The position numbers and the translations under genes were made by a program. Positions 4,462 to 55,960 of a stretch of 64,000 nt of DNA are shown piece by piece. The first letter of the stretch is position 1; every line of letters starts with the position of its first letter. The notes under the pieces were generated by a model. The model made no database searches. It was not told the DNA's origin and saw only the letters and a program-made list of their open reading frames with translations. Source of the stretch: Eubacteriales bacterium (GTDB lineage Bacteria; Bacillota; Clostridia; Oscillospirales; CAG-382); contig JAZNZY010000003.1 in NCBI GenBank assembly GCA_045595165.1, positions 1,374 to 65,373 on the forward strand. Direction: 5' to 3'.

Positions 4462-4500
4462 AATCACCCCAAGAAACCTTACGGCTTCTCGGGAACCCCG
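4462..4500 (+). repeat. Hairpin repeat family, short copy 1
   Basis: AATCACCCCAAGAAACCTTACGGCTTCTCGGGAACCCCG; similar to copies at 6088, 34383 and 55922. Confidence 0.85.
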
Positions 4501-4506
4501 ATAATT

Positions 4507-4534
4507 AAAAACGCCCGAATTTCTCGGGCGTTTT
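4507..4534. terminator. Bidirectional intrinsic terminator
   Basis: AAAACGCCCGA-loop-TCGGGCGTTTT between convergent genes. Confidence 0.85.
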
Positions 4535-4554
4535 ATTATGGAGTGATTATGCTG

Positions 4555-5931
4555 TTAAATAATCGGGAAGAAGATATCATAAAAAGAGTAATATTTGTGA
4601 TACCACGCGCCGAAGCCTTCGTATTCGCGTACCGAATGTCCGCCGGTGGCGTAGGAATGGTACTCCTTCTTTATAATTTCTCCGTCTTCGTTATAAGTGT
4701 ATTCCCAAACCTCGTCTTGTTTACCGCTGAACTCGTTGTATCCTTTTTCCACCGATTTTATAATTCTTCCGTATTCATCGGTGGTATACTCAATACGTCC
4801 GTAACTATTAAGTCCGTCTATAGAATCCCATTCCTCGGATTTAATAAAACCGTTTTCGTCGTATTCGTATACATAGCGGTAAATTTGATTTTCTCCGCTT
4901 TTCTTTTCCTTGACCAAAAGATTTCCGTTTTCATCGTAGGTTCGGGTTTCGATAGCGATAGTTCCGTCAAAATACGGTTCTTCCGTCTTTACAAGCTTAC
5001 CGTTTTCTCCGTAGGTATACTTGGTTATACTGCCGTTAAGGGATTCCTCGATAATTCTTCCTTGTTCATCGTGCTTCCATTTCTGTATACGGTAAACTCC
5101 CATATCGCTTTTGTAGGTTTCGTAGTGGATAATTCTTCCGTTACCGTCATAAGCAAATCTTTTTATTTCCAAAACGTCGTCGGAAGAATGGGTGGTGGTT
5201 TCAATCCGTTCAAGCATACCGTAATCGTTCCAGAAAAACAGCTTTGTCTGCGAATATCCGTCCCGTATTTCAGTACGCTTGATAAGTCTTCCCTCGGAAT
5301 CGTAATAATATTTATGATAACTGTCCGAAACCGTGTGTAACAAACCGTTGCTGTCGAAGTAAAATCCGGTTACGCTGTCGTGAGGTGATCCTGAGCCGTG
5401 GTGGTATTCGTATACTGTCAAATATACGCTTTTGGGATTGCCGTTTTCGTAAAACCGGCAAAAATAGTTATAAGTCCCGTCTATTCCGCGTAACGTATCG
5501 TGAAACTGATACTTTTGGGTTTCATAATAAGAACCGAAGTTGTTGAGCAGTTGGGTGGCATAAATATCGTATTCTTTTTCTTTTAGCAATCTGTATGCTT
5601 GTGTGTATTCGCCGCTGTTGATAAGAGTGTGTATTTCCTCATATCCTTCCGGTATTTGTATTACATCCGGCGTTTTGGGGAAATTCTCGCTTATCATTGG
5701 CTGTGCGTAGCTTTTTTCGTCAGCGTCGCTCTCTTCCGCAGGCTTGCTTTCCTCGGGTTTGCTGTCCTCGGGTTTGCTTTCCTCGGGCGCAGATTCGTTT
5801 ACGCTTTCTTCTGCGGATTCGGAGCGGGAAACATTACTGCTCACGTCGGCGGGGTCGTCGGCTATGCATGAAACCGTAAACAAAACGATAGATAAAATAA
5901 GTGCTGTAAGTACAAAAAGCTTGGTTTTCAT
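4555..5931 (-). CDS. Lipoprotein with YD/RHS-like repeats
   Basis: Lipobox-like FTVSC, acidic S/E linker, repeated Y.YD..G.L motifs; start MKTKLF after GGAGGAG RBS. Confidence 0.75.
   Translation of the reverse strand: MKTKLFVLTALILSIVLFTVSCIADDPADVSSNVSRSESAEESVNESAPEESKPEDSKPEESKPAEESDADEKSYAQPMISENFPKTPDVIQIPEGYEEIHTLINSGEYTQAYRLLKEKEYDIYATQLLNNFGSYYETQKYQFHDTLRGIDGTYNYFCRFYENGNPKSVYLTVYEYHHGSGSPHDSVTGFYFDSNGLLHTVSDSYHKYYYDSEGRLIKRTEIRDGYSQTKLFFWNDYGMLERIETTTHSSDDVLEIKRFAYDGNGRIIHYETYKSDMGVYRIQKWKHDEQGRIIEESLNGSITKYTYGENGKLVKTEEPYFDGTIAIETRTYDENGNLLVKEKKSGENQIYRYVYEYDENGFIKSEEWDSIDGLNSYGRIEYTTDEYGRIIKSVEKGYNEFSGKQDEVWEYTYNEDGEIIKKEYHSYATGGHSVREYEGFGAWYHKYYSFYDIFFPII
5741..5787. repeat. 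15-bp coding tandem repeat (about 3 units; E-E/D-S-K-P linker)
   Basis: GGTTTGCT(T/G)TCCTCG units. Confidence 0.8.
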
Positions 5932-5986
5932 ATGTTTCTCCTCCATTAGTAATTATATATATTCGGCTGTTAACCTTTACACTTAT

Positions 5987-6045
5987 ATTATACATAATAT
6001 GGTAAAAATGTCTATAAATAAATTATGAATAAAATGAATTTTGTG
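5987..6045 (-). promoter_or_regulatory. Sigma-A-like promoter with upstream repeat boxes, shared with 36108-36168
   Basis: TAGACA-16 nt-TATAAT with TG; ATTTATAGAC and CCATATTATG blocks identical to those at 36134-36160. Confidence 0.6.
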
Positions 6046-6087
6046 TAAATGAACAATAAATTATTTGTAATTTGTAGATTTTATACT

Positions 6088-6126
6088 AATCACCCTAAGA
6101 AGCCGCAAGGCTTCTTGGGGACCCCG
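6088..6126 (+). repeat. Hairpin repeat family, short copy 2
   Basis: AATCACCCTAAGAAGCCGCAAGGCTTCTTGGGGACCCCG. Confidence 0.85.
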
Positions 6127-6130
6127 ACAA

Positions 6131-6163
6131 AAAGCGGCATTCGCAAAAAACGGATGCCGCTTT
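6131..6163 (-). terminator. Intrinsic terminator of the amidase operon
   Basis: AAAGCGGCAT.CG...CGGATGCCGCTTT stem with A-tract on the left. Confidence 0.75.
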
Positions 6164-6168
6164 AAAAG

Positions 6169-7860
6169 CTATTTGGTTTTACGAAGAATTCTCACGTAAT
6201 CGTTAAGGGTTACTTTGCCGTCGCCATTGGCGTCGGGATATCCGCGGGGAACGTCCTCGCCCAAAATTATTTTGCGGATATATTCGGCATCCCGCTTTTC
6301 GATCTTTCCGTTGTAATCCGCATCGCCGTTTATCACTCGCGTAGCCGCTTCCACGGATTCGGTTACCATATACGCTGTGCCGTCGGTATCAATAACGTAA
6401 TCGGGCAGGGTAGCGGAGGGGGAATATCTGTGCTTTTCAAGCCGTGTTCCTTCGGATGTCATCGCCTCGTAATATTTGTTTACCAGACTCATAAAATAAT
6501 TCCATCCGGTTCCGTCGTGTATCAGTTGCTTATTTGTATTTAACCGCATATAATATGGGCATTGCTTTGAGTGGAAATAATACACATCGGTATGCTGAAG
6601 AATCTTATCCGGCGTAAGCTCGTATTTTACCAGCAATTCTGCGGTAAGCACAGCCGCGTTTTCCATTGCGGGAGTAAATGTTTCTTCATACCATTTATCG
6701 AATTCCGCACCGCTTGTTATGGGGTCGTTGTTACCGCCGGGACCTACGGGCGCACCCTGAAGACAAATCTCTATGCCGATAGTATAAAAATTATAATTGG
6801 TGGCGGCGTGCCAGCCCGCAACTGCATCGGGCAAGCCGTGGTAAATCACGTTTCCGTCTACGGTATAGTGCCACGAGGAGGAAGAGCCGTCCGTCTTGTG
6901 GACAAGATAATTGTGAACAAAATCCGCATCGGAGTAATATTCACACATGCCCGTGTTGTGTATTACGATATAGCGGATATCGTTGACGTAATGGGAATAA
7001 TAAGGTCTTCCCACCGACATAAAATCGTTTATAACCTTTACTTTTTCTCCGAATCCTTCACCGATGTAAAAGGTTTTACCGGGTTCGTCAAAATTCGCGG
7101 TAGAGGGATATGCGTATCCCGATACTTTTTTGATACTGTTTTCAAGCACGCCTTCGGGAATAGCGTATCCGCTGGAGAAATCGTATATTCTGCCTTCGCC
7201 GTCGCCGCCGAGAGAGGTTATATGCTCAATGTTTCCGTAAGCGGAAACGCATATTTCATCTGTAAGAGTGGTGTACTTTGCATCCTGTGTAAAGGTCACG
7301 CGGATATATCTTGCGGAAAAGGTTTCTTCAAGCTGAATTCGGTTTATCAGTATTTCGGTGCGCTTGTTTTCAACGTTTTGCACCATCAGGTCGCCTACGG
7401 AGAAAAAGTTTTCCCCGTCAACGGATGCCTTTACAGAAATAGAAGGCGTAAGACCTGAAATTCTGCGTTCCGTCATAGTGCGTATGAAGACTTGACCGAT
7501 CTCCCGCGCTACGTAGCCTATATCCAGAGTTACGGTAACGGAATAAGTCCCCTCGCCGCTTTCGGATTTATATCCTACCCAACCGTTGCTTCCTATCCAA
7601 TCCGTGTTGTTGTAATCGATAACAGGCGCGAAAATACCGTCCGTAAGCTCGTTGCCGTCGTCCGTGTAGTTTTCGAGAGGGATCGCGTCATTATATTCCA
7701 CAGTATAGTTCTTGTTTTGGGATACGGTCGCTTGTCTTGTGGCAGCGCGTTCCTCGGTATCGTATACAGGCGTTGCGTTTGCCGCTGTTGCCGCTATGGG
7801 AAACAGCGCCAGAATTACCGCCATTACGAATAAAACTGTCTTTTTCAAAATCTTCATCAA
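6169..7860 (-). CDS. Secreted N-acetylmuramoyl-L-alanine amidase (Amidase_2) with N-terminal discoidin-like domain and C-terminal dockerin
   Basis: Signal peptide; IVIHNT, SWHYTVD, AGWHA, IGIEIC, QH.D..K.CP; two EF-hand-like dockerin loops (GDADYNGKI, DANGDGKVTLND). Confidence 0.8.
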   Translation of the reverse strand: MMKILKKTVLFVMAVILALFPIAATAANATPVYDTEERAATRQATVSQNKNYTVEYNDAIPLENYTDDGNELTDGIFAPVIDYNNTDWIGSNGWVGYKSESGEGTYSVTVTLDIGYVAREIGQVFIRTMTERRISGLTPSISVKASVDGENFFSVGDLMVQNVENKRTEILINRIQLEETFSARYIRVTFTQDAKYTTLTDEICVSAYGNIEHITSLGGDGEGRIYDFSSGYAIPEGVLENSIKKVSGYAYPSTANFDEPGKTFYIGEGFGEKVKVINDFMSVGRPYYSHYVNDIRYIVIHNTGMCEYYSDADFVHNYLVHKTDGSSSSWHYTVDGNVIYHGLPDAVAGWHAATNYNFYTIGIEICLQGAPVGPGGNNDPITSGAEFDKWYEETFTPAMENAAVLTAELLVKYELTPDKILQHTDVYYFHSKQCPYYMRLNTNKQLIHDGTGWNYFMSLVNKYYEAMTSEGTRLEKHRYSPSATLPDYVIDTDGTAYMVTESVEAATRVINGDADYNGKIEKRDAEYIRKIILGEDVPRGYPDANGDGKVTLNDYVRILRKTK

Positions 7861-8555: not shown

Positions 8556-8558
8556 TAA

Positions 8559-9734: not shown

Positions 9735-9755
9735 TCCGCGTTAATTATTATATCC

Positions 9756-9784
9756 ATTATAATTGTTTTTTGTCCATATGTCAA
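9756..9784 (-). promoter_or_regulatory. Consensus sigma-A promoter
   Basis: TTGACA-17 nt-TATAAT on the minus strand. Confidence 0.8.
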
Positions 9785-9929
9785 TTGATTTAATATATAT
9801 TTATTGATACAACCGCCCTGTTTTTTCAATTTGCGTGTCTATGTACATATATGTTTATATAGACGGTGTATAATCAAGCAAATTGTCAAGAATATATACC
9901 TCTAATAAAATATATACATTGAGAGGTGT

Positions 9930-10139
9930 ATGGTAATGGTCAAAATTATTCTTGATAAAGCATTGAAAGACCGTGGTATGAGCAGATATCGCTTGGCTCA
10001 GCTTACGGGAACACAGTTTCAGGTTGTAGATAAATATTATAAAAACAAAGTAGTGCGTTACGATAGCTATTTGCTTGATAAGTTCTGTCAGGCGCTTAAT
10101 TGCGAAATAGGAGATATAATCGAATATATTCCCGAGTAA
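9930..10139 (+). CDS. Cro/C1-type HTH regulator (YozG-like)
   Basis: MSRYRLAQLTG..LDKFCQALNCEIGDIIEY pattern; GAGG RBS. Confidence 0.85.
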   Translation: MVMVKIILDKALKDRGMSRYRLAQLTGTQFQVVDKYYKNKVVRYDSYLLDKFCQALNCEIGDIIEYIPE

Positions 10140-17936: not shown

Positions 17937-18011
17937 GGCAGGGATAGCTGGATTCGAACCAGCGAGATGACGGAGTCAAAGTCCGTTGCCTTACCGCTTG
18001 GCTATATCCCT
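17936..18011 (-). tRNA. tRNA-Gln (UUG), CCA encoded
   Basis: Cloverleaf AGGGATA..GCCAAGCGGTAAGGC..ACGGA-CTTTGAC-TCCGT..GCTGGTTCGAATCCAGC-TATCCCT-G-CCA. Confidence 0.97.
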
Positions 18012-22678: not shown

Positions 22679-22696
22679 CTTTAATATTATAGTTTA

Positions 22697-22731
22697 AAAA
22701 GAGCTCGGCACTTCATAAACCGAGCTCTTTT
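22697..22731. terminator. Bidirectional terminator
   Basis: AAAAGAGCTCGG...CCGAGCTCTTTT. Confidence 0.8.
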
Positions 22732-22743
22732 GATTTGTTGTTT

Positions 22744-23274
22744 TTATGCAAAGTGTTTTCTATATCCGTCCGTAAGGATTTTTCCGTGGTCGGATGCGAT
22801 ATCCTCGCTCTTTCCTTCGGGGGAAAGGGTAAGTACCGTTTCGCCGTGAGAAAGGGTAAAGCCCTTTTCGCTTACGGAAATATCAAACCATTTAGCGTCC
22901 GCCGCATCGTCCCCTGCTTCGGTTTTGGGCATTTTTTCAAGTACTTGAGTAAACGCCACGGTGATTATACGGGTGCGGGGGTCGCGCTTGGGGTCTGAAT
23001 AAACCCTTAACTGCTCGGGGTATGCCTCCACGCCCGTTTCCTCCATAAGCTCACGGGATGCCGCTTGCTCGCAGGTTTCGTTCGGCTCCACAAATCCGCC
23101 GGGGAGCGCCCAAGTATCTATAAAGGGATGGTTTGCCCGTTTTATTAAAAGCACCTTGTTTTCGCAAAAGATAACCATATCCACGGTTACGGAAGGACGC
23201 TCAAATTTACTCGCATCGTAAGCGGCAAGAAATTCCGCTTCCGTCTGGCCCTGGGCGTTGCGTTTTTCTGTCAT
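22744..23274 (-). CDS. NUDIX hydrolase (ADP-ribose pyrophosphatase-like)
   Basis: PSVTVD, WALPGGF..E...AA.REL.EETG, RDPR, AGDDA. Confidence 0.9.
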   Translation of the reverse strand: MTEKRNAQGQTEAEFLAAYDASKFERPSVTVDMVIFCENKVLLIKRANHPFIDTWALPGGFVEPNETCEQAASRELMEETGVEAYPEQLRVYSDPKRDPRTRIITVAFTQVLEKMPKTEAGDDAADAKWFDISVSEKGFTLSHGETVLTLSPEGKSEDIASDHGKILTDGYRKHFA

Positions 23275-23289: not shown

Positions 23290-23994
23290 TTATAAAGGTT
23301 TTTTCATAATTCTGCCGTTTGCTCTGGGGTATTCGGCAGGGGTAGAGGATATCTTTTTTATAACTATAACGGTGTGGCTTCTGTCAAAAACGGGGATGGG
23401 AGCTTCAAAAAGCTCTGCCTCGCCGCCGCCCAGAACTTTTATGGCGTTGCGCGCTTCCTCCAGTTCTTCTCTGCCGCGGTTGCCCTTCATTGCTATAAAA
23501 TATCCGCCCTTTTTAACCAAAGGCAAACACCATTCGCACAGCACGTTAAGGCGGGCTACCCCGCGGGAAACGGCTATATCGTATTTTTCTCTGTGCCCGC
23601 CCTTGCCTGCTTCCTCTGCGCGGGCGCACAGAGTGGATATGTTGGAAATACCCGCTTCCCGCGCGGTTTCTTCAACAAATCTCAGTTTTTTTGCGGTGCT
23701 GTCCAATCCCGTGAAATGGCAGTCGGGAGCACATATCGCCAGAGGGAAGGTGGGGAACCCTCCTCCGCAGCCAATGTCAATAACCTTTTTGTTTTTAAAA
23801 AGTCCGGTTTTAAGAGGGGAGAGGGAATCCACAAAATGCAGCAGCGCAATCTCTTCGTCGGTCTTAAGGTCGGTTACGTTCAGGTTTCCTTCTATCCGTT
23901 TAAGTCCCTCCGCCACGGCGTAAAACTGCTTTTCCTGCTCCTCCGTAAAGGATATGGGGGAATATTTTTTTGTAATATCAATTATGTTTTTCAT
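23290..23994 (-). CDS. rsmG: 16S rRNA m7G527 methyltransferase
   Basis: LHFVDSL, IDIGCGGGFP, RAEE, position after mnmG. Confidence 0.95.
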   Translation of the reverse strand: MKNIIDITKKYSPISFTEEQEKQFYAVAEGLKRIEGNLNVTDLKTDEEIALLHFVDSLSPLKTGLFKNKKVIDIGCGGGFPTFPLAICAPDCHFTGLDSTAKKLRFVEETAREAGISNISTLCARAEEAGKGGHREKYDIAVSRGVARLNVLCEWCLPLVKKGGYFIAMKGNRGREELEEARNAIKVLGGGEAELFEAPIPVFDRSHTVIVIKKISSTPAEYPRANGRIMKKPL

Positions 23995-25852
23995 TGTTTT
24001 TCCTTTGAGTAAGCCATACCAGCAAAACGGAAATATCCGCAGGCGAAATGCCGGATATTCGGGATGCCTGACCAACGGAAGCGGGACGGAGTGCATTAAG
24101 CTTTTGCGCCGCTTCAAGACGTATTCCTTTGATTTGGGAATAGTCTGCGTCTGCAGGGAGCGCCTTATCCTCCAATTTGCTCACACGTTTAACCTCGTCA
24201 AGCTCTTTTTTGATATAGCCTTCGTATTTAATTTCGGTTTCTGCCCTGCGGGCAACCTCCCGCTTTACGTTGCGTCCGTCAAGAGCGCAAATATCTGCGT
24301 GGGTTATGGCGGGACGCTTTATCAGCTCCGCTTTACGCATACCGCCTTCGCTTTCGCCGTAGCCCCTCTCGGTAAGAAGCTGTGTAAGCGCCTCCGTTTT
24401 GGGCACGGAATTTGTGCGGAGATGGTTTATCTCCTCCTCCACTTCCTTGTAAAGGGCGATGTATTCGGCATATTTTTCGTCGGATATAAGCCCTGCGTAT
24501 CTGCCGTATTCTATAAGTCTTTGCTTTGCGTTGTCCTGCCTCAAAAGCAAGCGGTATTCGCTTCGGGATGTCATCATACGGTAAGGCTCATTCGTGCCCT
24601 TGGTAACCAGGTCGTCTATAAGGGTGCCGATATATCCTTCGCTCCGCTTAAGCACTATCTGCTCCCTGCCTTGAACAGCCAATGCGGCGTTTATACCCGC
24701 AATAATTCCCTGCGCCGCCGCTTCCTCGTAGCCGGAGGAGCCGTTGAACTGTCCTGCCCCGTAAAGACCTTTTAAGTTTTTAAACTCCAAGGTGGGGTGT
24801 AATTGAGTAGGGTCTGCGCAATCATATTCAATAGCGTATGCGGTGCGCATAAATACTGCGTTTTCAAGTCCCTTTATGGAATGAACTATCTGCTTTTGCA
24901 CTTCCTCGGGCAGGGATGAGGAAAGCCCCTGCAGGTACATTTCCTTGGTGTGCTCGCCCATAGGCTCTACAAATATCTGGTGTCTTTCCTTATCGGAAAA
25001 ACGCACCACTTTATCCTCTATAGAGGGGCAGTATCTGGGTCCCGTGCCCTTTATCACACCCGAAAAAAGCGGGGAACGGTGGAGGTTTTCTTTAATAATA
25101 CGGTGGGTTTCGGGATTGGTGTAGGTAATATAACATTCTCGCTTGTTTACTCCCGCCTGCTCATCGGAAAAACGTGTGGCAAACTCATCCCCAACCTGCT
25201 TTTCCATTTTATCGTAATCCAGAGAATCCGCGTGCACTCTGGGGGGAGTTCCCGTCTTGAATCGGGTAAGCTTTATTCCGTTTGCTTCCAGCGTTTGGGA
25301 AAGCTTGTCTGCGGATATGCTGTTATCGGGTCCCGAGGAATATGCGTGCTCGCCTGCAATAATTTTTCCTTTAAGGGACGTTCCCGTGGCGATTATTACC
25401 TTTTTTGCGGGAAAATGTCCTCCGAAAGCGGTGTCCACTCCCGTAATGCAACCGTCCTCGGCGGTTATTCCCGTAACCTCTGCTTGAATAAGGGTAAGGT
25501 TAGGGGTGCTTTCCACCACCTCGGTCATATAGTTTCTGTATGCAACTCTGTCCGCCTGCAGTCTTAAGGAATGTACCGCAGGTCCCTTGCTGGAATTCAG
25601 CATTCTGCTTTGAAGCATAGCGTGGTCGGCGGCTTTTCCCATTTCTCCGCCCAAAGCGTCTACCTCATATACCAGATGGCCTTTTCCCGTTCCTCCGATA
25701 GAGGGGTTGCAGGGCATATTTCCCACAAGATCAAGGGTAAGGGTGAACAGCGCCGTCTTCAAACCCATGCGTGCGGATGCAAGAGCCGCTTCAATACCTG
25801 CGTGTCCTGCACCTACCACGATTATATCATAATTTTCCGCTGTATAACTCAT
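23978..25852 (-). CDS. mnmG: tRNA uridine-5-carboxymethylaminomethyl modification enzyme
   Basis: GAGHAG, CNPSIGG, RFKTGTPPR, GPRYCPSIEDK, AGQFNGSSGYEEAAAQG. Confidence 0.98.
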   Translation of the reverse strand: MSYTAENYDIIVVGAGHAGIEAALASARMGLKTALFTLTLDLVGNMPCNPSIGGTGKGHLVYEVDALGGEMGKAADHAMLQSRMLNSSKGPAVHSLRLQADRVAYRNYMTEVVESTPNLTLIQAEVTGITAEDGCITGVDTAFGGHFPAKKVIIATGTSLKGKIIAGEHAYSSGPDNSISADKLSQTLEANGIKLTRFKTGTPPRVHADSLDYDKMEKQVGDEFATRFSDEQAGVNKRECYITYTNPETHRIIKENLHRSPLFSGVIKGTGPRYCPSIEDKVVRFSDKERHQIFVEPMGEHTKEMYLQGLSSSLPEEVQKQIVHSIKGLENAVFMRTAYAIEYDCADPTQLHPTLEFKNLKGLYGAGQFNGSSGYEEAAAQGIIAGINAALAVQGREQIVLKRSEGYIGTLIDDLVTKGTNEPYRMMTSRSEYRLLLRQDNAKQRLIEYGRYAGLISDEKYAEYIALYKEVEEEINHLRTNSVPKTEALTQLLTERGYGESEGGMRKAELIKRPAITHADICALDGRNVKREVARRAETEIKYEGYIKKELDEVKRVSKLEDKALPADADYSQIKGIRLEAAQKLNALRPASVGQASRISGISPADISVLLVWLTQRKNNEKHN

Positions 25853-25854
25853 AT

Positions 25855-27201
25855 TTATTTACCTACGCAAAAATGTGAAAAAATTTCGTTTACAATTTCC
25901 AGTGCGGCAGTTCTGCCGTCAATTTCCCCAAGTGCGGATACGGCACGTTCTATACATTCGCCCGCAATATCCTGGGTAAATCCGTCAAGGGCGTGTATAG
26001 CATCGTCAACGTTTTCCAAAGCTCTCTCAATGGCGGAAAACTGTCTTGCGGAAACGATTATATCCTGTGTGTCTGCCTCTGCCGCCCCTGCAAAGGAAAG
26101 TATTTTCTTCTGTAATTCTTCAAATCCCTCGCCCGTTGCCGCAGACATATATACTGCGTTTTCAAAGGGGGAAGCGGTTTTTTTGCCCATATCGCATTTG
26201 TTCATTACCGTTATAACACGGTCTTCTTTTCCTTTAAGCAGAGAAACAAGCTCGTTATCCTCCTCGGTAAGAGGGGAAGAACAATCAAACACCGCAATAA
26301 TAAGGGAGGATCTTTCTATTTCCTTTATACTTCTTTTAATTCCTGCCGCTTCAACGGTTTCTTCGCTTTCTCTTATTCCCGCCGTGTCCGCAAGGTTGAG
26401 CAGTACGTCCCCCACCTTAACCTGCTCGGTGATAACGTCGCGGGTGGTGCCTGCAATATCGGTTACAATGGCTCTGTCAGTACCGCATAAAAGGTTCATC
26501 AAAGTGGATTTACCCGTGTTGGGCTTGCCCGCAATAACGGTGGGTATACCTTCGGATATAGCCTTGCCGAACTTGTGAGTTCCCGCAAGGGAAACAAGCT
26601 CTGCTTTTACCTTGTTAAGCCGTGTGAGCATTTCGGGAACGGACATATCTGTCATATCCTCGTCGGGATAATCGATATACGCATACACGGTGGCGGCGGT
26701 CAAAATAAGCTCGTTACATAAAGCGTTTATTTTTTCGCTCATCTTTCCGTCCAGCTGGCGCAGGCTTACCTGAAGGTGCTTTTCGCTGTGGGCATCAATA
26801 AGTCCGCCTACCGCCTCCGCTTGGGAAAGGGTTATTTTGCCGTTTATATATGCCCGTCTTGTAAATTCTCCCGCACCTGCAGGCACAGCTCCTGCCCAAA
26901 AGCAGGCTTTAAGCAGCTTTTCCTGCACCAAGGCACCGCCGTGACAGCACAGCTCCGCCGTATCCTCCCCCGTAAATGAACGGGGAGAAATGAACATAGT
27001 TGCCATTCCGTCGTCAAAATTTCCGTCTTTATCGCAAAAATATCCGTGCACAGCCTTTCCTGCGGGATATTCGGTAATATCCTTTCCGGAAGCAGGGGAA
27101 AAAACCTTGCGGCAAACCTGCAAGGCGTCCTCTCCGGATATTCGTATAAGTGCAACGCCCCCTTTTCCTCTGGGGGTGGATATTGCCGCTACTGTGCTCA
27201 T
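25855..27201 (-). CDS. mnmE: tRNA modification GTPase
   Basis: SFTGED, GKPNTGKS, GTTRD, DTAG, NKCD, C-terminal FCVGK. Confidence 0.98.
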   Translation of the reverse strand: MSTVAAISTPRGKGGVALIRISGEDALQVCRKVFSPASGKDITEYPAGKAVHGYFCDKDGNFDDGMATMFISPRSFTGEDTAELCCHGGALVQEKLLKACFWAGAVPAGAGEFTRRAYINGKITLSQAEAVGGLIDAHSEKHLQVSLRQLDGKMSEKINALCNELILTAATVYAYIDYPDEDMTDMSVPEMLTRLNKVKAELVSLAGTHKFGKAISEGIPTVIAGKPNTGKSTLMNLLCGTDRAIVTDIAGTTRDVITEQVKVGDVLLNLADTAGIRESEETVEAAGIKRSIKEIERSSLIIAVFDCSSPLTEEDNELVSLLKGKEDRVITVMNKCDMGKKTASPFENAVYMSAATGEGFEELQKKILSFAGAAEADTQDIIVSARQFSAIERALENVDDAIHALDGFTQDIAGECIERAVSALGEIDGRTAALEIVNEIFSHFCVGK

Positions 27202-31139: not shown

Positions 31140-32450
31140 ATGGCAAAAAACAAATCTTTACCGTTTTTCTTTTCGCCTCTTGCGGCGGTAGGAATAGTTT
31201 TTCTTGCCAATCCCATATTCGGAATAGTTGACATTTTGCCGGATGCGTTGGGTTGTCTGTGTCTGTGGCTTGCCCTTACCGAGCTTTCGTATATCGACAG
31301 CCGTATAGACACTGCCCGAAGCCGCCTTTTACTCCTTGCGGGGATAGAAGGAATAAAGCTTGTTTTAACTCCCACGCTGTATAAAAGCGTAGTGTCATCG
31401 GACACCTTGGCGGCAACGGCGTTTTTCGGCGTTATAGAAGGACTGTTGCTCATATTGGCTTTCAACAATCTTTACGAAGGACTTTCTTATTCCGTTTCCC
31501 GTCGGGGAGATGGAAAAAGTCTTAACGTGTTTGAGGGCGCAAAGGCGCTGTGCTTCGTTTTCGTGGTGCTCAGGGTGCTTATGAATATCGTTCCCGAATG
31601 CGCCGCGCTTTTTGAGCTTGCGGCTCACAGCGATATTACCAATGCGGAATTGTTCTACAGCATTGCGGGACTAAAAAATTATTTCCACCTGCTTAACGGA
31701 TTTATAGTTATCATTATGGGCGTATGGTGGAGCATAAGTGCTTGCGGAATGTTTAAAAAGCTTCGGAGGGACAGCGCATTTACACAGTCCCTTGCTATTT
31801 CCTACGGGGAAGGCTATTCCGCCAATCTTCGGGTAAAGACCTCTTCCTGGTTCAGAACTGCCGCCCGTATAGTTATGGTTGCACTTGTATTCTTTTTCAA
31901 TTTCGATCTGGGATACCGCAGTATGCTGCCGAATTTTGTGGGAACAGCATTTCTTTTGGCAGGAGTCGCCGTGTTGGGATACCCTCTCAAAAAACAGCTA
32001 TACAAGCGTTTTTCCCTGCCTGTTATTATATACGCCTTTGCCGTTCAGATAGGTGCGTACATATACCGCGCTTTGAATGTGGATCTTACCATCGAATTTT
32101 TCACACAGCTCAATTGGGTGGACGTTACTGTGTGCGGAGTTATCGGACTGGCGGAATTTATATCGTTTATACTGCTGGCGAGAATGTGCGAAAAAATATT
32201 TACCGAATACGTAAACGGTATCTGCGGTGAAAAGACGGCAGGTCTTATGTATTCCGTAAAGATCGCCGTATACGCTTCGGGCTTTATATATTGGGTGGGC
32301 TACACCCTGCCTCTGTTAAGAGGATATCTTGTTTTACCTCAGATCGTTGCACTTATCGCCATCGGCGCAATTATAAACGCAAACGTGAATTTTGTTCGCG
32401 GATGCGTAGAAAATCCGGAGGAAAATGTAAATCTATGTGCGGATTTATAG
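31140..32450 (+). CDS. Hypothetical polytopic membrane protein
   Basis: DILPDALG motif, many TM helices, AAGGAG RBS. Confidence 0.7.
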   Translation: MAKNKSLPFFFSPLAAVGIVFLANPIFGIVDILPDALGCLCLWLALTELSYIDSRIDTARSRLLLLAGIEGIKLVLTPTLYKSVVSSDTLAATAFFGVIEGLLLILAFNNLYEGLSYSVSRRGDGKSLNVFEGAKALCFVFVVLRVLMNIVPECAALFELAAHSDITNAELFYSIAGLKNYFHLLNGFIVIIMGVWWSISACGMFKKLRRDSAFTQSLAISYGEGYSANLRVKTSSWFRTAARIVMVALVFFFNFDLGYRSMLPNFVGTAFLLAGVAVLGYPLKKQLYKRFSLPVIIYAFAVQIGAYIYRALNVDLTIEFFTQLNWVDVTVCGVIGLAEFISFILLARMCEKIFTEYVNGICGEKTAGLMYSVKIAVYASGFIYWVGYTLPLLRGYLVLPQIVALIAIGAIINANVNFVRGCVENPEENVNLCADL

Positions 32451-34321
32451 GAATTTTAAATAACAACGGTATTACCGAAAGAGATATAGCGGACACAAAG
32501 GCGATGTCCCACGTTATAAGGCACAGGGGTCCCGATCTTGACAAAGGTTATACGGGGGACAAGGTGTGCTTCGGCTTCCGCCGTCTTTCCATAATCGATC
32601 TTGAGGGCGGAACACAGCCTTACGTTTCTCCCGACGGACGCTATTCCTGCGTCTACAACGGCGAGGTATATAATTATCTTGAACTCCGTAACGAGCTTCT
32701 TGCCAAGGGTGAAAAGTTTGAATCCAATTCCGAAATAGAAGTAATGGTCCGTCTGTACTCTTTGTACGGGGAAAGCTTTATATCCCGCCTCCGCGGTATG
32801 TTCGCTTTTCTTATATACGATAAAGAAACGGGCACTCTAATGGCGGGAAGAGATCCTTTCGGTATAAAGCCCCTGTACTTCCGCGTGGAAAAGGAACGCA
32901 CCGTGTTCGCCAGCGAGATGAAGGCGTTTTTCGCAGACAGCGAGTACGAGGGCTTTTCCGTGGACAGCACCCTCCTGCAGCATTATTTCTCCTTCCAGTT
33001 TGTGCCCGAGCCCGATACCGTGGGAGGGGATATAAAGAGCGTGCCCAAGGGCTCATATATGCTGGTGAAGGGTGATACGAGAGAAACCTTTTCTTACTGG
33101 AAGCCCGTTTTTGCTCCTGACCGTACAGGTACTTACGATACCCGAAAAAAGGCTCTTCGTGAAGCCGTAGAAAGCTCGGTTCAGTATCATATGCTGGCAG
33201 ACGTTCCCGTGGGAAGCTTTCTCTCCTCTGGCGTGGATTCCGCCATTATCACCGCAGTTGCTTCCAAGCTTCAGCCGGGTATAAAAGCGTTCACCGTGGG
33301 ATTTGACGTAAAAGGCTTTTCCGAAATCGAAGACGCCTGCGAAATTTCCGCACATCTTGATATAGACCATATTACTCTCCGCGCAACGGTGGAGGATTTT
33401 AAAGAAGCCTTTGAAAAAACCATATATCATCTGGATTCTCCCGTAGCAGACCCTTCCGTTGTGGCGATCTATCTGATCTCCCGTGAAGCGTCCAGGCACG
33501 TAAAAACTATTCTTTCGGGCGAGGGAAGTGATGAATTGTTCGGCGGCTACCGTCAGTACGCCACCGCCGCGCCCAGCGCGCGAATGAACTCTCTGCCCGG
33601 ATTTATTAAGAGCTTTCTTTTGTTTATTGCAAATATGATGCCCGACGGAATGAAGGGCAAGGGTTATATCACCCGCGGCTGTGTTCCTATCGAAAAACGC
33701 TTCGTAGGCGGCTCGTTTATATTTACCGAGCAGCAAAAATCAAAGTTTTTGCGCACATTTGATAAAGACGTTCACTTTACCCAGCGCACCGCGCCTATCT
33801 TTGAATCCGCAGTGGGCTACACACCGCTTCAAAAAATGCAGCATTGCGATCTTAATTGCTGGCTTCCTTCGGATATCCTTGTAAAAGGGGACAGGCTTTC
33901 TATGGCGCACTCCCTTGAAGCCCGCGTTCCTTTTCTGGATAAAGAGGTGTTCAAGGCGGCAAGATGTCTGCTGGACAGCGATAAGATCTCCCACGGCACC
34001 ACAAAGTATATCTTAAGAGATACTTTTTCCGATCTGCTTAACAGCGAAACGGTGGTCCGTCCCAAGAAGGGATATCCCGTTCCCGTAAGAATATGGCTTA
34101 AGGACGAATTGTTTGATTGGGCAAAGAATATTCTTGCAAACAACCCCGCGCCTCAGTTTATAGACGAACGGTACGTTATCGATCTGCTTGAAAAGCACGC
34201 TTCCGGCAAGGGGGATTATTACCGTCAGATATGGGCGGTCATAGCCTTTATGACATGGTACCGCCTTTACGTTACCGAGGCGGATATCACCCGTAATAAG
34301 ATCGTTGCGGGCGAGTTTTAA
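32435..34321 (+). CDS. asnB: Asparagine synthase (glutamine-hydrolysing)
   Basis: N-terminal MCG, HRGPD, YNGEVYN, LSSGVDS, SGEGSDELFGGY, LEARVPFLD. Confidence 0.95.
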   Translation: MCGFIGILNNNGITERDIADTKAMSHVIRHRGPDLDKGYTGDKVCFGFRRLSIIDLEGGTQPYVSPDGRYSCVYNGEVYNYLELRNELLAKGEKFESNSEIEVMVRLYSLYGESFISRLRGMFAFLIYDKETGTLMAGRDPFGIKPLYFRVEKERTVFASEMKAFFADSEYEGFSVDSTLLQHYFSFQFVPEPDTVGGDIKSVPKGSYMLVKGDTRETFSYWKPVFAPDRTGTYDTRKKALREAVESSVQYHMLADVPVGSFLSSGVDSAIITAVASKLQPGIKAFTVGFDVKGFSEIEDACEISAHLDIDHITLRATVEDFKEAFEKTIYHLDSPVADPSVVAIYLISREASRHVKTILSGEGSDELFGGYRQYATAAPSARMNSLPGFIKSFLLFIANMMPDGMKGKGYITRGCVPIEKRFVGGSFIFTEQQKSKFLRTFDKDVHFTQRTAPIFESAVGYTPLQKMQHCDLNCWLPSDILVKGDRLSMAHSLEARVPFLDKEVFKAARCLLDSDKISHGTTKYILRDTFSDLLNSETVVRPKKGYPVPVRIWLKDELFDWAKNILANNPAPQFIDERYVIDLLEKHASGKGDYYRQIWAVIAFMTWYRLYVTEADITRNKIVAGEF

Positions 34322-34338: not shown

Positions 34339-34381
34339 AACGGCTTTTTCCTTTTAAAATAAGGATAAAGCCGTTTTTTTG
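34339..34381 (+). terminator. Intrinsic terminator after asnB
   Basis: AACGGCTTT.TCCTT...AAGGA.AAAGCCGTT followed by T-tract. Confidence 0.7.
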
Positions 34382-34382
34382 T

Positions 34383-34420
34383 CGGGGTCCCGAAGAAGTC
34401 GCAGACTTCTTGGGGTGATT
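34383..34420 (-). repeat. Hairpin repeat family, short copy 3
   Basis: Reverse complement AATCACCCCAAGAAGTCTGCGACTTCTTCGGGACCCCG. Confidence 0.85.
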
Positions 34421-46065: not shown

Positions 46066-46091
46066 AGAGGCAAGGAATTTTCCTTGCCTCT
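46066..46091 (-). terminator. Terminator hairpin
   Basis: AGAGGCAAGGAA-TT-TTCCTTGCCTCT. Confidence 0.75.
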
Positions 46092-46106: not shown

Positions 46107-46204
46107 CGGGGTCCCCAAAAAATTGTTTTTACGCGAATTGTTATGTCTATTGCGGGCGATTCGTGAATCGCCCCTACATTCCTAAAAACATTTTTTGGGG
46201 GATT
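46107..46204 (-). repeat. Hairpin repeat family, long copy with internal GTAG-REP-like hairpin
   Basis: Reverse complement AATCCCCCAAAAAATGTTTTTA..GTAGGGGCGATTCACGAATCGCCCGCAATAGACATAAC..TAAAAACAATTTTTTGGGGACCCCG. Confidence 0.8.
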
Positions 46205-46205
46205 T

Positions 46206-47213
46206 TTACTTCTCCCAGATCTTGAGGGACTTAATCTTGGATACCATAGTATCTGCCAGTTTTTCGTTTATCTTCATACCGGGATGTCCCGCCGCCGCGT
46301 AATCCTTTTTGGGGTTGGCAACGGATATGGGGACGAAATGCAGTTTTTCGTCGGTTTCACCCATACGCTTGAACAGCTTTTTAAGAAGTCCCATATAAGG
46401 ATCGCCCATAAGACCGTAGCACCAGATAATATGTGCGTGGGTGTATTTGGAACGGATATCGTTTATAAGCGCGGTTGCGCCTTTTTCAAAATCCTCTGCG
46501 CTCACGCCGCCCCAACCGTCGTTGGTGCCGCCGTTTATCATAACCACCTGGGGAGTCCATTTGCTGTGATCCCACACTTCTCCGTTACGGGAGGTCATAT
46601 TAAACATCTGGTCAAAGGTAAGGTCCAAAGCGCCCTCGCAGTTGCGTACGATACCCTTGCCGGAAGCACATTGGCAGTGCAGGTCTGCGCCCAGCTCCTC
46701 TGCAACAAGAAACGCCCAAGCGGCAGTGGAATCCTCATCGCAGGTGCGAAAAACGGTGGTATCCTGATCACCTCTTACGCCGTATCCGCAGGTGATGGAA
46801 TCGCCCAGAACCTCTATACGGCGCACGCTTTCAAGGGGAGGAGGCAGAATTTCACCGTATATTTCAAGCCCTTTTATGTACAGCTTATCTTCTCCCTCGG
46901 TAATGCGGAGAACGCGAACGGTGTGCTCTTCGTTTTTAAGATCGTCAACAATAACGTGTTCTTTTCCGTCGCTCACGCAGTATCTTGCGGTATCACCGCT
47001 CCAGCCGAAGAGCTTCTTTTCACGGTCAATATCCGCTCTTATGTATACGGGCTGGTCAGCCTTGTGCTCGCCGAAGATTATATGGAAACCCGTTCCCTTG
47101 AACTTAAAGGAAAATCCGCTGTTTGACCAATCCAGAAGCAGTGCGTCTGCCGCAAGGACGTGTCTGCCGTGGTACAAGAAATTATCACGCTCGGTAAGAT
47201 AAACTGTTTTCAT
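46206..47213 (-). CDS. SGNH esterase, CE2 (acetyl xylan esterase)-like
   Basis: N-terminal beta domain, GDSITCGYG, SGKG, GTND, GHP. Confidence 0.85.
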   Translation of the reverse strand: MKTVYLTERDNFLYHGRHVLAADALLLDWSNSGFSFKFKGTGFHIIFGEHKADQPVYIRADIDREKKLFGWSGDTARYCVSDGKEHVIVDDLKNEEHTVRVLRITEGEDKLYIKGLEIYGEILPPPLESVRRIEVLGDSITCGYGVRGDQDTTVFRTCDEDSTAAWAFLVAEELGADLHCQCASGKGIVRNCEGALDLTFDQMFNMTSRNGEVWDHSKWTPQVVMINGGTNDGWGGVSAEDFEKGATALINDIRSKYTHAHIIWCYGLMGDPYMGLLKKLFKRMGETDEKLHFVPISVANPKKDYAAAGHPGMKINEKLADTMVSKIKSLKIWEK

Positions 47214-50962: not shown

Positions 50963-51046
50963 ACCTTCTTTTTTTGAAAAAGTGATTGCATATAGGGGAA
51001 AAGGGTGATAAAATATAATAAATATGTTTTTACGGAGGTAAACGAT

Positions 51047-51811: not shown

Positions 51812-51827
51812 AAGGAAATTTATTACT

Positions 51828-53213: not shown

Positions 53214-54381
53214 ATTTTATTTCCTGCCGCATAGCAATATTTTTGTTTATTACAACGTGTGCTTTTAACCGGTACACGTTGTTTTTTATACTTTCCTCCG
53301 TTTCGATGCTGACTATTTCACCGTCTGAAACCTTTTCCCACCAAAGCTGTAAGGCTTTATCTGCTTTTCTTTTAGCTTCTTCCTCGGTAATTTGGTATTC
53401 ACGGGTTACGTATTCCTTGTAAACCACTGTAGAGATCTTCACCGGCAGCTTCAGCCCGAAAATTTTAAGGTTTCTTTCTTCCGTAACCGCATCGCAGGAA
53501 GAAAAGGAAGATTCTTGGTTTGTATATAACCTTATAGGAAAGCCGATTATATATATTTCCCGCTTTACGTCTTCTTTTCCCGTGTATTCCTTGCCCGAAG
53601 CCGTTAACGAAATATCAAACACCTGTATTTCAGCCACATCGGCGTAAACGTATCCCTTGGAATTCACTATTTTATATGCACCGTATCTGTTTTCCACAAG
53701 CCCGTTTATGAGAAGCTGTCCTTGGGTAACCACATCGCCCACTTTTATCTCGGGGTGTCCTTCAGCCGCTACTACGTTGGTTATTATTCCGTCCCATCCT
53801 GCGACCAGATTACAGTATCCCTCTTCGGGAAAAACGGTTTCGGGCTTTGGCACCCGCTCAATAACGTCCACGGTTGCCACGGTTCCTTTCACGTTTATGG
53901 CAAGGGAGGAGAGGGGGGAATAATCAAGCAATATGTATTCGGCAGTGAGATCGGCATCCATATCGGGTATAAACGTACCTACCTTTACACCGTAGGATGC
54001 CAGCACCTTTGTAATTTCCTCTGCAGAAACGTTAACGTTGCCCGTAATGTTAATTTCCCATATAAATAAAGATGATATCAAAAGAAAAGCGGCACCAAGC
54101 AGGATTCCTGCGTATATGCCGTATCTTTTTCGGTAGCGGGATATCAAAAACGGCAATCCCCGCTGTTTTACGATTACAGCGTCTATTCCCAGTTCATGGG
54201 CGGTATCAATAAAGGCTTTGCAGGAAAACAGGCTTGCGTTTGCCGTTACCGTATCTCCATCTGCCAATGGGGAAAAGAAGAATATGTCTTTTTCCTTGCA
54301 TTTGTTCAGCAGCTTTGGTGCATCGTCTTTTGGAAAAGCGATGGTATAAGATCCAAAAAAATTACGTATTATTCGGTTCAT
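53191..54381 (-). CDS. yqfD: Sporulation protein YqfD
   Basis: GLPF..RYRKR, FIWEINITGN, NLVA..DGII, V..GQLLI.G. Confidence 0.88.
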   Translation of the reverse strand: MNRIIRNFFGSYTIAFPKDDAPKLLNKCKEKDIFFFSPLADGDTVTANASLFSCKAFIDTAHELGIDAVIVKQRGLPFLISRYRKRYGIYAGILLGAAFLLISSLFIWEINITGNVNVSAEEITKVLASYGVKVGTFIPDMDADLTAEYILLDYSPLSSLAINVKGTVATVDVIERVPKPETVFPEEGYCNLVAGWDGIITNVVAAEGHPEIKVGDVVTQGQLLINGLVENRYGAYKIVNSKGYVYADVAEIQVFDISLTASGKEYTGKEDVKREIYIIGFPIRLYTNQESSFSSCDAVTEERNLKIFGLKLPVKISTVVYKEYVTREYQITEEEAKRKADKALQLWWEKVSDGEIVSIETEESIKNNVYRLKAHVVINKNIAMRQEIKFNPNKPF

Positions 54382-54601
54382 ATTCCACACTCCGTATGTA
54401 ACCGTCGATTCCTATTTTCTCTCCGGATAAGTAATTCATTTTCAATCTTTTTCCCGTTACGGTTATTTTAAGGCTTTTTCCTGCCAGAACTATTTTTTCA
54501 TTTCCGTATACCAGCATTTTTCCGTATCCGTCTGCGGCAAGATAAGTATTGCCTCTTATTTCCAAAAACTCACCGAACAAGGTATCGGGTAATTTTTTCA
54601 T
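54362..54601 (-). CDS. yqfC: YabP/YqfC family sporulation protein
   Basis: Small ORF upstream of yqfD; ITVTG..L, I.G.I.SVEY. Confidence 0.75.
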   Translation of the reverse strand: MKKLPDTLFGEFLEIRGNTYLAADGYGKMLVYGNEKIVLAGKSLKITVTGKRLKMNYLSGEKIGIDGYIRSVEYEPNNT

Positions 54602-54647
54602 ATTTTTCCCGCCTTTCCGTATATATTATTATGGGAGTTGATGGTTT

Positions 54648-55538
54648 ATGAATAAAGCCGCACGCAGAGTTTGGATAAAAGCGGTAAATCTTATGTTCAT
54701 AGGCGTGTTTGCTTTTCTTTTGGTATACCCAAGCTATGTCAGCGTCGCTACAGCACGTGCTGTAACCTTTTGCCTTAAAAATATAATTCCCTCCCTTTTC
54801 ATTTATCTCGTGTTTTCCCGGCGTATAACAGCCATAACAGCAGTGACAAAGCTTTGCGCCAATCCATTGTGGGGAAGCGTTTTCACAGTATTGCTGGGCT
54901 TTCTCTGCGGATATCCCGCAGGGGCGAGAAATTGCGTGTGTCTGTACGAAAGCGGCGTTATTTCACGAAAAAGAGGGGAGTATCTGTGCTGTCTTTGCTC
55001 GGGCGCGTCTGTTGCGTTCGTCCTCGCTTTTGCAGGTGCATCGGTTATGGGAAGTGTAAAATACGGCTTAAAGCTTTTGGTATTCCAGTTCGCCGCCACA
55101 CTTGTCACAGCGGTTATCTTTTACCCGTTTATGCTGAAAAATGATGATAAAATAGTGCCCTGCGCTCAGAACACATACGTGCGAAATGTGGATTTTTCCT
55201 TGGCGGTATCCGAATCTGCTTTGCTTATGGTGCGGATCTGCGGATTCATCGTGTGTTTTTTTGTGTTGGGCGCTATCGTTTCCGACCTTTTTCCTGCGGA
55301 AAGTATGCGGTCCGTGTTGGTTAAAGGATTGTTTGAGTTTTCATCCGGAATAGCCGAAAGCGCATTCTTTTCCCTTCCCACCCGCGAGGTACTGTGCAGC
55401 TTGTTTCTGGGGTTCGGTTCACTTTCCGCAATATTTCAGACCGTGTCTGTAATAAAGGAAGTTTTTTCCGTAAAGCCGTTTATAATATCCCGCTTGGTTA
55501 TTGCTTCACTTATGGCCGTTTTCGCTTTGCTCACTTGA
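54648..55538 (+). CDS. ylbJ: Sporulation integral membrane protein YlbJ-like
   Basis: IIPSLF, LGFLCGYPAGA, ICGFI, LFEFSSG. Confidence 0.8.
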   Translation: MNKAARRVWIKAVNLMFIGVFAFLLVYPSYVSVATARAVTFCLKNIIPSLFIYLVFSRRITAITAVTKLCANPLWGSVFTVLLGFLCGYPAGARNCVCLYESGVISRKRGEYLCCLCSGASVAFVLAFAGASVMGSVKYGLKLLVFQFAATLVTAVIFYPFMLKNDDKIVPCAQNTYVRNVDFSLAVSESALLMVRICGFIVCFFVLGAIVSDLFPAESMRSVLVKGLFEFSSGIAESAFFSLPTREVLCSLFLGFGSLSAIFQTVSVIKEVFSVKPFIISRLVIASLMAVFALLT

Positions 55539-55563
55539 CAAAACATCTTTAAGGTCGTATAAT
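55535..55563 (+). promoter_or_regulatory. Perfect consensus sigma-A promoter
   Basis: TTGACA-17 nt-TATAAT. Confidence 0.85.
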
Positions 55564-55582
55564 AATCTGCGAGGTGAAAAAA

Positions 55583-55777
55583 ATGTCTGCTTCTGTCGAA
55601 AAACAATGCCTGAATTGTGTTCACTCCAACGGAGATTTTGATAAATGCTATTGTCTGTATAAGGGTGAGGTATCATTTTCAGCCAAGTGCCGTAAGTATA
55701 AATTGGATCTGCTAAAAATAAAACCCCGCCCTCCTATCAACCTTAATGCGGAAGATATAGTTATAGAACGAATATAA
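55583..55777 (+). CDS. Small Cys-rich hypothetical protein (64 aa)
   Basis: GAGGTG RBS; CxxC...CxC..KG.V.....CRKY. Confidence 0.75.
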   Translation: MSASVEKQCLNCVHSNGDFDKCYCLYKGEVSFSAKCRKYKLDLLKIKPRPPINLNAEDIVIERI

Positions 55778-55778
55778 A

Positions 55779-55960
55779 AAGCACCCCAAGAAAGGTTTTT
55801 AGGGGGAGTGTGGCGATTTGCAAATCGCCCGCAACAGACATAACAAATGCATTAAAAACGCTTTCTCGGGGGACCCCGCAAAAAGCACCCTAAGAAATTT
55901 GCAATTTCCCAATAACCCGATAATCACCCCAAGAAGCCTTGCGGCTTTTCTGGAACCCCG
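55779..55960 (+). repeat. Three tandem copies of the hairpin repeat family (long 55779-55878, degenerate short 55883-55919, short 55922-55960)
   Basis: AA(G/T)CACCC(C/T)AAGAA starts and ACCC(C)G ends; the long copy matches 46107-46204. Confidence 0.85.

Follow-up and report, generated by a model that had tools for sequence, protein, structure and literature searches.

A short hairpin repeat that adjoins intrinsic terminators with fixed polarity in a Clostridia chromosome

The 64,000-nucleotide (nt) stretch of contig JAZNZY010000003.1 analyzed here, referred to below as the window, is chromosomal DNA from a spore-forming, dockerin-bearing member of the Clostridia with a GC content of 0.43-0.47, and the genes identified in it by Pfam include spoIIAA-spoIIAB-sigF, yqfD, yabP, secA, polA, mnmE-mnmG-rsmG and an amidase with a dockerin domain. 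Dispersed through the window is a family of hairpin repeats with a 37-nt core and a 12-bp stem, which is represented at five loci by seven intergenic copies (c1-c7, Table 1): four are short, two are long and one has decayed. An earlier account made without database searches (the sequence-only reading) had placed seven copies at these loci, and its placement holds, with c6 now classed as decayed and c4 and c5 as long forms. Coordinates and strands in Table 1 follow the orientation of that account, i.e. the strand on which the repeat ends in ACCCCG; the better-folding strand is its reverse complement.

Two end motifs, GGNACCCCG and CACCCYAAGAA (at most 1 mismatch), each occur 6 times in the window, where 1.73 and 1.82 occurrences, respectively, are expected, and in neither case did any of 100 shuffles reach 6. 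A covariance model, R1, recovers the four short copies at E<=9e-15 and matches the long forms and the decayed copy only in part. The R1 training set included these four short copies so that their scores follow by construction, the informative part being the absence of others: neither R1, run without filters, nor a fuzzy regular expression located any further copy in the window. Copies are single or arranged head-to-tail, with a tandem period of 41 nt in relatives, and inverted pairs are found at 0 of the 5 window loci. In both long forms the family stem encloses a common insert of ~60 nt (84% column identity), within which lies a GTAG-tagged hairpin of the canonical repetitive extragenic palindromic (REP) type. 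Among the matches listed from the genome scan described below (loci with L numbers) a pattern for this insert recurs at one further locus only, L002; a match at L059, with 3 mismatches, is probably due to chance. The long form at L079 is without the inner GTAG hairpin and the nested insertions therefore happened stepwise. The hairpins inside the two long copies form a second family, GC-footed and with a GTAG foot, that recurs in a repeat-rich spacer of L002 (about 2095-2130), and these Clostridia therefore host several nested palindrome families.

Table 1. Repeat copies, inner hairpins and terminator hairpins in the window (dG, folding free energy in kcal/mol)
Feature	Position	Strand	Remarks
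Short copy c1	4462..4501	+	Between the stop (4461) of the oxidoreductase gene and the terminator; model match 4460-4505, E=2.9e-17
Short copy c2	6088..6128	+	Behind terminator of amidase gene 6169-7860 (-); model match E=1.9e-15
Short copy c3	34382..34420	-	Behind asnB terminator, upstream of spoIIAA-spoIIAB-sigF; model match E=8.9e-17
Long copy c4	46107..46204	-	Family stem, AAAAA/TTTTT variant, around ~60-nt insert
Long copy c5	55779..55878	+	Unit 1 of three-unit head-to-tail array
Decayed copy c6	55883..55921	+	Partial model match only, E=6.3
Short copy c7	55922..55961	+	Final array unit, adjoins terminator; model match E=9e-15
GTAG-tagged hairpin, canonical REP type, in c4 loop	46150..46178	-	Pattern: 3 matches vs 0.06 expected
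Hairpin in c5 loop	55808..55834	+	Homologous to c4 inner hairpin; same GTAG-type pattern
A/T-flanked bidirectional terminator hairpin	4508..4534		7 nt from c1; dG -16.4
Terminator hairpin of amidase/dockerin gene	6131..6163		4 nt from c2; dG -19.4
Terminator hairpin after asparagine synthase 32291-34321 (+)	34339..34375		7 nt from c3; dG -16.9
Terminator hairpin after CE2/GDSL esterase gene 46206-47213 (-)	46066..46091		15 nt from c4; dG -18.5
Bidirectional terminator hairpin, common with convergent gene 56003-56458 (-)	55968..55996		From fold; next to c7
Terminator after NUDIX gene 22744-23274 (-), without repeat	22690..22743		L108 ortholog has a copy

At all five window loci the ACCCCG end of the array is next to a second, strong hairpin that is preceded by an A-tract and followed by a T-tract. 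The distances from this end to the A/T-extended terminator stem are 7, 4, 7, 15 and 2 nt at loci 1-5, in keeping with the spacing of about 15 nt or less claimed earlier, and element and neighbor fold as two separate hairpins (z-scores -2.3 to -8.0). The gene context is likewise as the sequence-only reading had described it. Three arrays begin 0-4 nt after a stop codon and precede the terminator (loci 1, 4 and 5, following GFO/IDH/MocA, 3424-4461 (+), the CE2/GDSL esterase, 46206-47213 (-), and a 67-aa open reading frame (ORF), 55574-55777 (+)), and two lie behind the terminator of a gene (amidase/dockerin, 6169-7860 (-), and asparagine synthase, 32291-34321 (+)). The terminators at loci 1 and 5 are common to a convergent gene, at locus 1 serving both 3424-4461 (+) and 4555-5946 (-), so that the same copy lies before the terminator for one gene and behind it for the other. 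By inspection, the true intergenic gaps of the window hold ~10 distinct A/T-flanked terminator hairpins, 5 of them with the repeat, and window terminators have an A-tract upstream and a T-tract downstream on both strands. The 67-aa ORF is cysteine-rich, gives no Pfam match and ends 1 nt before the three-copy array; were it not a real gene the nearest upstream stop would be ~240 nt, not 1 nt, from the array. A consensus terminator scan, which misses A/T-extended stems (4508-4534 and 6131-6163 are not listed), scores c1 itself, 4467-4494 (-) followed by TGATTTTATT, as terminator-like.

The preference for one end extends well beyond the window. For this comparison copies were grouped into arrays and each side was examined for a single hairpin with dG<=-12 kcal/mol starting within 15 nt, the sample consisting of the window and the ruminant-gut Clostridia relatives listed, from which 3 of 59 arrays were dropped for a flank of less than 60 nt. 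In the remaining 56 arrays, partly orthologous to one another, a strong hairpin is present at the ACCCCG end in 45 and at the opposite end in 2 (window, 5/5 vs 0/5; relatives, 40/51 vs 2/51), with the discordant arrays split 43:0 (sign test, p=2e-13). An earlier, stricter terminator detector had given 33 of 69 vs 13 and was replaced by this fold-based count. Gene contexts, classed on naive ORFs of at least 100 aa, are mixed: 8 of the 59 arrays lie only in a sense 3' untranslated region (UTR), 13 only behind the terminator of a convergent gene and 18 in both situations, the remaining 20 falling in neither class or having too short a flank. The polarity of the element follows the neighboring hairpin and not transcription, as the sequence-only reading had proposed from its five loci.

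The stem is supported by covariation. In an alignment (A5) of 128 distinct short copies 90.6% of stem cells pair on the ACCCCG strand, compared with at most 58.7% when the partners are slid, and 6 of the 12 stem pairs have changed on both sides, amounting to 116 cells vs 27.3 in shuffles, with 0 of 500 shuffles reaching the observed value; the compensatory changes noted earlier are thus real. This complementarity was not imposed by the pattern with which the copies were collected, in which the 5' arm was fixed and the 3' arm for the most part unconstrained. Where the earlier account must be corrected is in its choice of folding strand. Non-Watson-Crick cells are distributed unevenly between the strands: 97.6% of cells pair on the reverse complement vs 90.6% on the forward strand, and rows in which each of the 11 pairs is standard number 102 vs 51 (of 128), the largest differences being at pair 5 (123 rows reverse vs 70 forward, of 128) and pair 12 (115 vs 76, of 124). 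The strand under folding constraint would therefore be the reverse complement, a consistent hint and not proof, because the effect comes mainly from pairs 5 and 12.

On the folding strand the element begins with a 5'-(C)GGGGT tag, followed by a 12-bp stem starting CCCC, a loop of 3-7 nt, the return stem and a TGATT(R)T tail, the two stem arms making up the whole element; on the other strand the foot of the 128 aligned copies is ATCA. Placement has to be restated along with the strand, since on this one the element lies immediately after the terminator hairpin and its T-tract, i.e. in or at the T-tract behind the hairpin. No replication-strand signal could be read from the window, as the 64 kb contain no DnaA-box cluster and no usable skew. 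DnaA-box-like nonamers (at most 1 mismatch) number 26 vs 13.7 expected, a count that 0 of 100 shuffles reach, and are scattered; mnmE-mnmG-rsmG, at 23290-27201, are usually origin-proximal genes.

Between sister species the repeat has been gained and lost. L056, a sister whose flanks at locus 2 are 80-87% identical, has a diverged ortholog of the terminator there and no repeat. On the minus strand L056 reads ...GCTGTTTTTT followed directly by GTATG, and the window ...CCGCTTTTTG, 41 bases and then GTATA, so that the extra block is exactly 41 bases, placed between the T-tract and GTAT and equal in length to the tandem-array period of the relatives. Its boundaries fit either no target duplication or at most GT (2 bp); a flanking AYAA/AYAA direct repeat is common in the family and at the empty site is not a clean duplication. 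The reverse situation is found at the NUDIX gene, where L108 has a copy behind the terminator of the ortholog and the window has the terminator only; the terminators of L108 and the window differ, making this a case of presence/absence and not a clean empty site. Presence and absence thus occur in both directions, with one exact empty site of the kind that the sequence-only reading had proposed to seek. Copy c1 provides the complementary case, being retained at the same site by three species, which agree at 36 of 37 core bases: orthologous copies occur in L016 (85.5% identity to the window over 3349 nt) and L056 (87.4% over 2077 nt).

More distant copies were collected by a pattern scan of a species-representative genome collection, with the 5' arm and 3' end fixed and 13-18 nt between the arms, which returned at least 108 loci. 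Chance matches are estimated, from the information content of the pattern, at ~26 for the entire collection, and only about three listed matches (L039, L090, L096) are without an internal stem. The distribution over taxa is that of the matches listed, and the spacer limit leaves long forms outside the scan. On this basis 46 of the loci are from ruminant-gut Clostridia, Eubacteriales or Oscillospiraceae metagenome-assembled genomes (MAGs), 44 are, unexpectedly, from Acidobacteriota (Terracidiphilus and relatives), 8 from Desulfarculus or another deltaproteobacterial MAG, and single loci are from Bacteroidales, Saccharibacteria, Chloroflexota, Dehalococcoidia and Dormibacterota. Loci from outside the Clostridia have the GC-rich flanks typical of their taxa, and ~20 specified bases are identical across phyla. 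The family is thus not limited to one lineage, which corrects the earlier account. So nearly identical a core in unrelated phyla is unusual for REP-type repeats and points to horizontal spread of a machinery that reads the element.

What is the target, a sequence or a structure? The junction on the folding strand is TT[AG]T/CGGGG (slash at the element boundary) in most Clostridia copies, and the 3' end of the element has a similar TTRT; each copy would thus recreate a target, which would explain the head-to-tail arrays. In the HP-free non-coding DNA of the window (3650 of 64000 bases are non-coding by the gene list) 6 of 30 T-rich TTRT sites follow a strong hairpin at a distance of 15 nt or less, compared with 45 of the 56 arrays (Fisher p=1e-7). 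Placement thus calls for more than a sequence target: the hairpin may form part of the target, or insertions elsewhere may be removed by selection, and the data are compatible with both. Copies in GC-rich phyla have different flanks (CC/CGGGG) with no terminator needed, and there the element is often nested, with an enclosing stem of 6 or more pairs around 18 of 48 copies in Acidobacteriota vs 3 of 63 in Clostridia; several of the Acidobacteriota outer stems carry a GTAG foot. A nesting control that took the 3' flank from another copy was uninformative since the copies belong to the same composite repeats. In the Terracidiphilus MAG locus L022 (298-343) a copy lies in frame inside the ORF of type III pantothenate kinase (coaX), to which it adds ~15 residues. 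Together with the nested copies this means that the element can land in loops and, rarely, in genes.

Other long palindromes were encountered along the way. At L041, L050, L054, L069, L078 and L085 (Deltaproteobacteria MAG WY2.bin34) the hairpin is the apex of a ~170-nt palindromic repeat with conserved outer arms, and in two Bacteroidales/Bacteroidia MAGs (L020, L099) it lies within a comparable long palindrome. The window itself has a strong hairpin, TGGGGACGG...CCGTCCCCA, at 58060-58090 (dG -18), after a leucine-rich repeat protein gene, 58102-59823 (-), and with no clear T-tract, that may come from another GGGGAC-type palindrome family of the kind seen in L001 and L002.

The sequence-only reading had not recognized the repeat as a named family, and neither did the searches made here. 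At the gathering threshold Rfam reports in the window only a tRNA gene, 17939-18011 (-); for loci 4 and 5 at E<=10 the best match scores 26 bits against a threshold of 70, and a gathering scan of 20 related loci yields only an unrelated Acido-Lenti-1 match and no group II intron. A blastn search of plasmids and phages with c7 gave weak partial matches only (E ~1), literature matches listed for the element's end strings are all unrelated, eukaryotic or technical, and the element strings are absent from two supplements of Quentin et al. (PMC6006769). ORFs between inverted copies in L022 and L010 are housekeeping genes only according to Pfam.

Comparison with known systems is instructive, REPs being the closest in kind. 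Canonical REPs are reported to have a 5' GT[AG]G tag at the hairpin foot and a cognate RAYT gene flanked by REPs, the RAYT cutting them by reading tag and hairpin (PMC6006769); a second REP superfamily is reported to carry CGTC (PMC3733652). Like REPs, which are imperfect palindromes of 20-40 bp, and REPINs, the present element is short, imperfectly palindromic and GC-footed and bears a conserved tag at its 5' foot, laid out on the folding strand as a tagged REP would be. It is extragenic and multicopy, clusters at the 3' ends of genes, shows stem covariation and nesting with other REPs, has occasional in-frame copies within genes and persists at orthologous sites. It works like a REP in every respect tested, from the tagged hairpin and extragenic 3'-end clustering to covariation, nesting and persistence. 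It is nonetheless not to be filed as a canonical REP, because it has neither tag, no inverted doublets of the REPIN type (copies are single or head-to-tail) and no RAYT identified in the window or near the listed copies. Further differences are its fixed polarity toward a neighboring terminator hairpin and the occurrence of one core in several phyla, REP families being described as specific to their RAYT. Both the strict docking behind terminators and the near-identical core in distant phyla are uncommon for REP-like palindromes.

TIRYT genes (TnpA-Y1 subclass 2.1) are reported to be flanked by repeats sharing GGGGWSAS, some of them self-complementary and clustered (PMC3733652; PMC6006769), with a well-defined TIRYT group in Acidobacteria (PMC3733652); in the literature searched GGGGWSAS occurs in Di Nocera 2013 (PMC3733652) only. 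Compared with this consensus motif alone, the element ends GGGGTGAT and GGGGACCC match at 7 of 8 positions each, and the element is likewise abundant in Acidobacteriota among the matches listed, whereas neither end fits the consensus exactly and no TIRYT gene was seen beside any copy; the resemblance is a lead, not a test. The repeat resembles IS200/IS605 elements and PATEs in being defined by a hairpin, with no clear target duplication (0 or 2 bp at the one exact empty site), in that one end abuts a short specific flank (TTRT here, in most Clostridia copies; TTAC for IS608) and in that its folding bias is strand-specific, suggestive of a single-stranded intermediate. It differs in having one hairpin per 41-nt unit instead of distinct left-end and right-end hairpins, and in that no tnpA or tnpB lies near it. 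A MITE, or cut-down insertion sequence, would have terminal inverted repeats and a target duplication of fixed length; in the present repeat the two arms form the entire element, and the flanking AYAA/AYAA is common in copies but no clean duplication at the empty site. Group IIC introns, finally, are reported to be located just behind inverted repeats, among them those of terminators with their run of T's (PMC1702495). The element occupies the same position just downstream of a stem-loop and T's, a safe haven outside genes, and is otherwise unlike these kilobase ribozyme/reverse-transcriptase retroelements, being a 41-nt DNA hairpin with no ribozyme signature.

Taking these results together we consider it on balance probable that the repeat is a mobile DNA element, small, non-autonomous and REP-like, which has a 41-nt unit and a GGGGT tag in place of GTAG and is moved as single-stranded DNA. 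New copies would land in or at the T-tract behind an existing hairpin, which may be an intrinsic terminator (on either strand if it is bidirectional), a resident copy of the element or, in other phyla, the loop of another palindrome; landing on another copy would give head-to-tail arrays with the 41-nt period, and landing in the T-tract after a hairpin would explain why the ACCCCG end faces the terminator whatever the direction of transcription. Movement would depend on a trans-acting HUH Y1 enzyme (RAYT, TIRYT or IS200-like), with one hairpin and its tag guiding cleavage at both ends, at TTRT in the 5' flank and at the element's own 3' end, and with the neighboring hairpin itself presumably part of the target. 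Of the structure-targeted mobile element that the sequence-only reading had put forward, mobility and a link to hairpins have thus stood, through gain and loss and through polarity, while the HUH mover and the reading of hairpins are features that we infer.

Several observations weigh against this interpretation. Exactly one precise empty site was found. The sequence-only reading had suggested looking for a RAYT, TnpA or IS110 gene flanked by the motif, and none is seen: Pfam finds no transposase, integrase or reverse transcriptase among 63 window ORFs, a regular expression for the Y1 transposase motif has 0 matches in 1239 ORFs around the 108 loci listed (a weak test), no transposase was found within 2 kb of sampled copies, and an all-against-all blastp of the 1239 ORFs yields no protein family present at more than 5 loci. 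The tag is (C)GGGGT, GT[AG]G and CGTC both being absent. Nor is a hairpin neighbor obligatory, since 11 of 56 arrays have no strong adjoining hairpin at the ACCCCG end (7 of these lying inside larger composite repeats, at L001, L002 twice, L003, L029 twice and L064) and one Acidobacteriota copy lies in frame inside coaX, where its extra residues fall between conserved N-terminal segments. Orthology among arrays (L016/L056/window locus 1; L007/L037; L006/L070) makes the effective sample for polarity smaller than 56, the strand bias, mainly at two positions, could reflect inherited variants and not many independent events, and the conservation of c1 in three species at a single locus is also what a host function might produce.

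Among the alternatives, the element might be mobile without reading structure at all, inserting at T-rich TTRT with only harmless insertions beside terminators surviving and polarity arising from the asymmetry of T- and A-tracts, a scheme that we regard as rather unlikely yet well worth keeping in view. The TT[AG]T/CGGGG junction of most Clostridia copies, with the same motif ending the element, speaks for it; the window's terminators offer A-tracts upstream and T-tracts downstream on both strands; at a coding density that leaves 3650 of 64000 bases non-coding few other sites would tolerate an insertion; and the CC/CGGGG-flanked copies of GC-rich phyla need no terminator. It sits less well with the scarcity of strong hairpins at T-rich TTRT sites (6/30) relative to arrays (45/56), and with the finding that in other phyla the element is again in or beside hairpins; selection may underlie each of these results. 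A further step away is the idea that the repeat serves the host, as an auxiliary or backup terminator, a 3'-end stabilizer of mRNA or a protein-binding site, spread by recombination and kept by selection. One may cite for it the terminator-like score of the c1 hairpin with its TGATTTT on the folding strand, the presence of the repeat at about half of the A/T-flanked terminator hairpins of the window (5/~10), the retention of c1 (36/37 core bases in three species), the ~20 specified bases that are the same across phyla among the matches listed, and a report of E. coli REPs as 3'UTR regulators (bioRxiv 10.64898/2026.03.23.713779). We think such a role improbable as the explanation of the family, however, given that orientation is not fixed relative to the transcribed gene, that on the folding strand the element follows the terminator and would rarely be transcribed, that sister species differ in its presence at sites which are conserved in other respects, that tandem, decayed and nested copies exist, that one copy lies in frame inside a gene, and that no Rfam family matches.

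Very improbable indeed is that the repeat derives, as a remnant or satellite copied by way of RNA, from a retroelement that homes to terminators, such as a group IIC intron. On the folding strand its position just behind an inverted repeat and T's is the one reported for IIC introns (PMC1702495), but a 41-nt unit holds no intron domain, Rfam detects no group II intron in the window or at 20 related loci, Pfam detects no reverse transcriptase in the window, and the ends of the element show no evident likeness to known intron boundary sequences. A bolder version of the single-stranded DNA interpretation is that the repeat represents an undescribed third 'tag' superfamily (GGGGT) of REP-like elements, a 41-nt one-hairpin single-stranded DNA transposon spread across Clostridia, Acidobacteriota, Desulfobacterota, Chloroflexota and others, homing to T-tracts behind hairpins, mainly intrinsic terminators, with one hairpin and guide for both ends. 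We offer this version tentatively, as one that may well prove wrong. If true, the element would be a DNA-only counterpart of the group IIC introns that home to terminators, and TnpA-Y1 subclass 2.1 (TIRYT), so far without a function, might serve it.

Integration directed by structure is otherwise known, to our knowledge, chiefly for group IIC introns and for insertion sequences targeting REPs. If it holds, the preferred interpretation would matter for annotation: by inspection, some half of the terminators in the region have an additional hairpin beside them, with effects on terminator prediction, 3'UTR structure and assembly breaks in gut MAGs. Should the interpretation as a mobile element that homes to hairpins be correct, the family would provide a minimal, sequence-defined system for establishing how a tiny DNA hairpin finds terminators, and would link an orphan class of HUH enzymes to a substrate that is testable in vitro.

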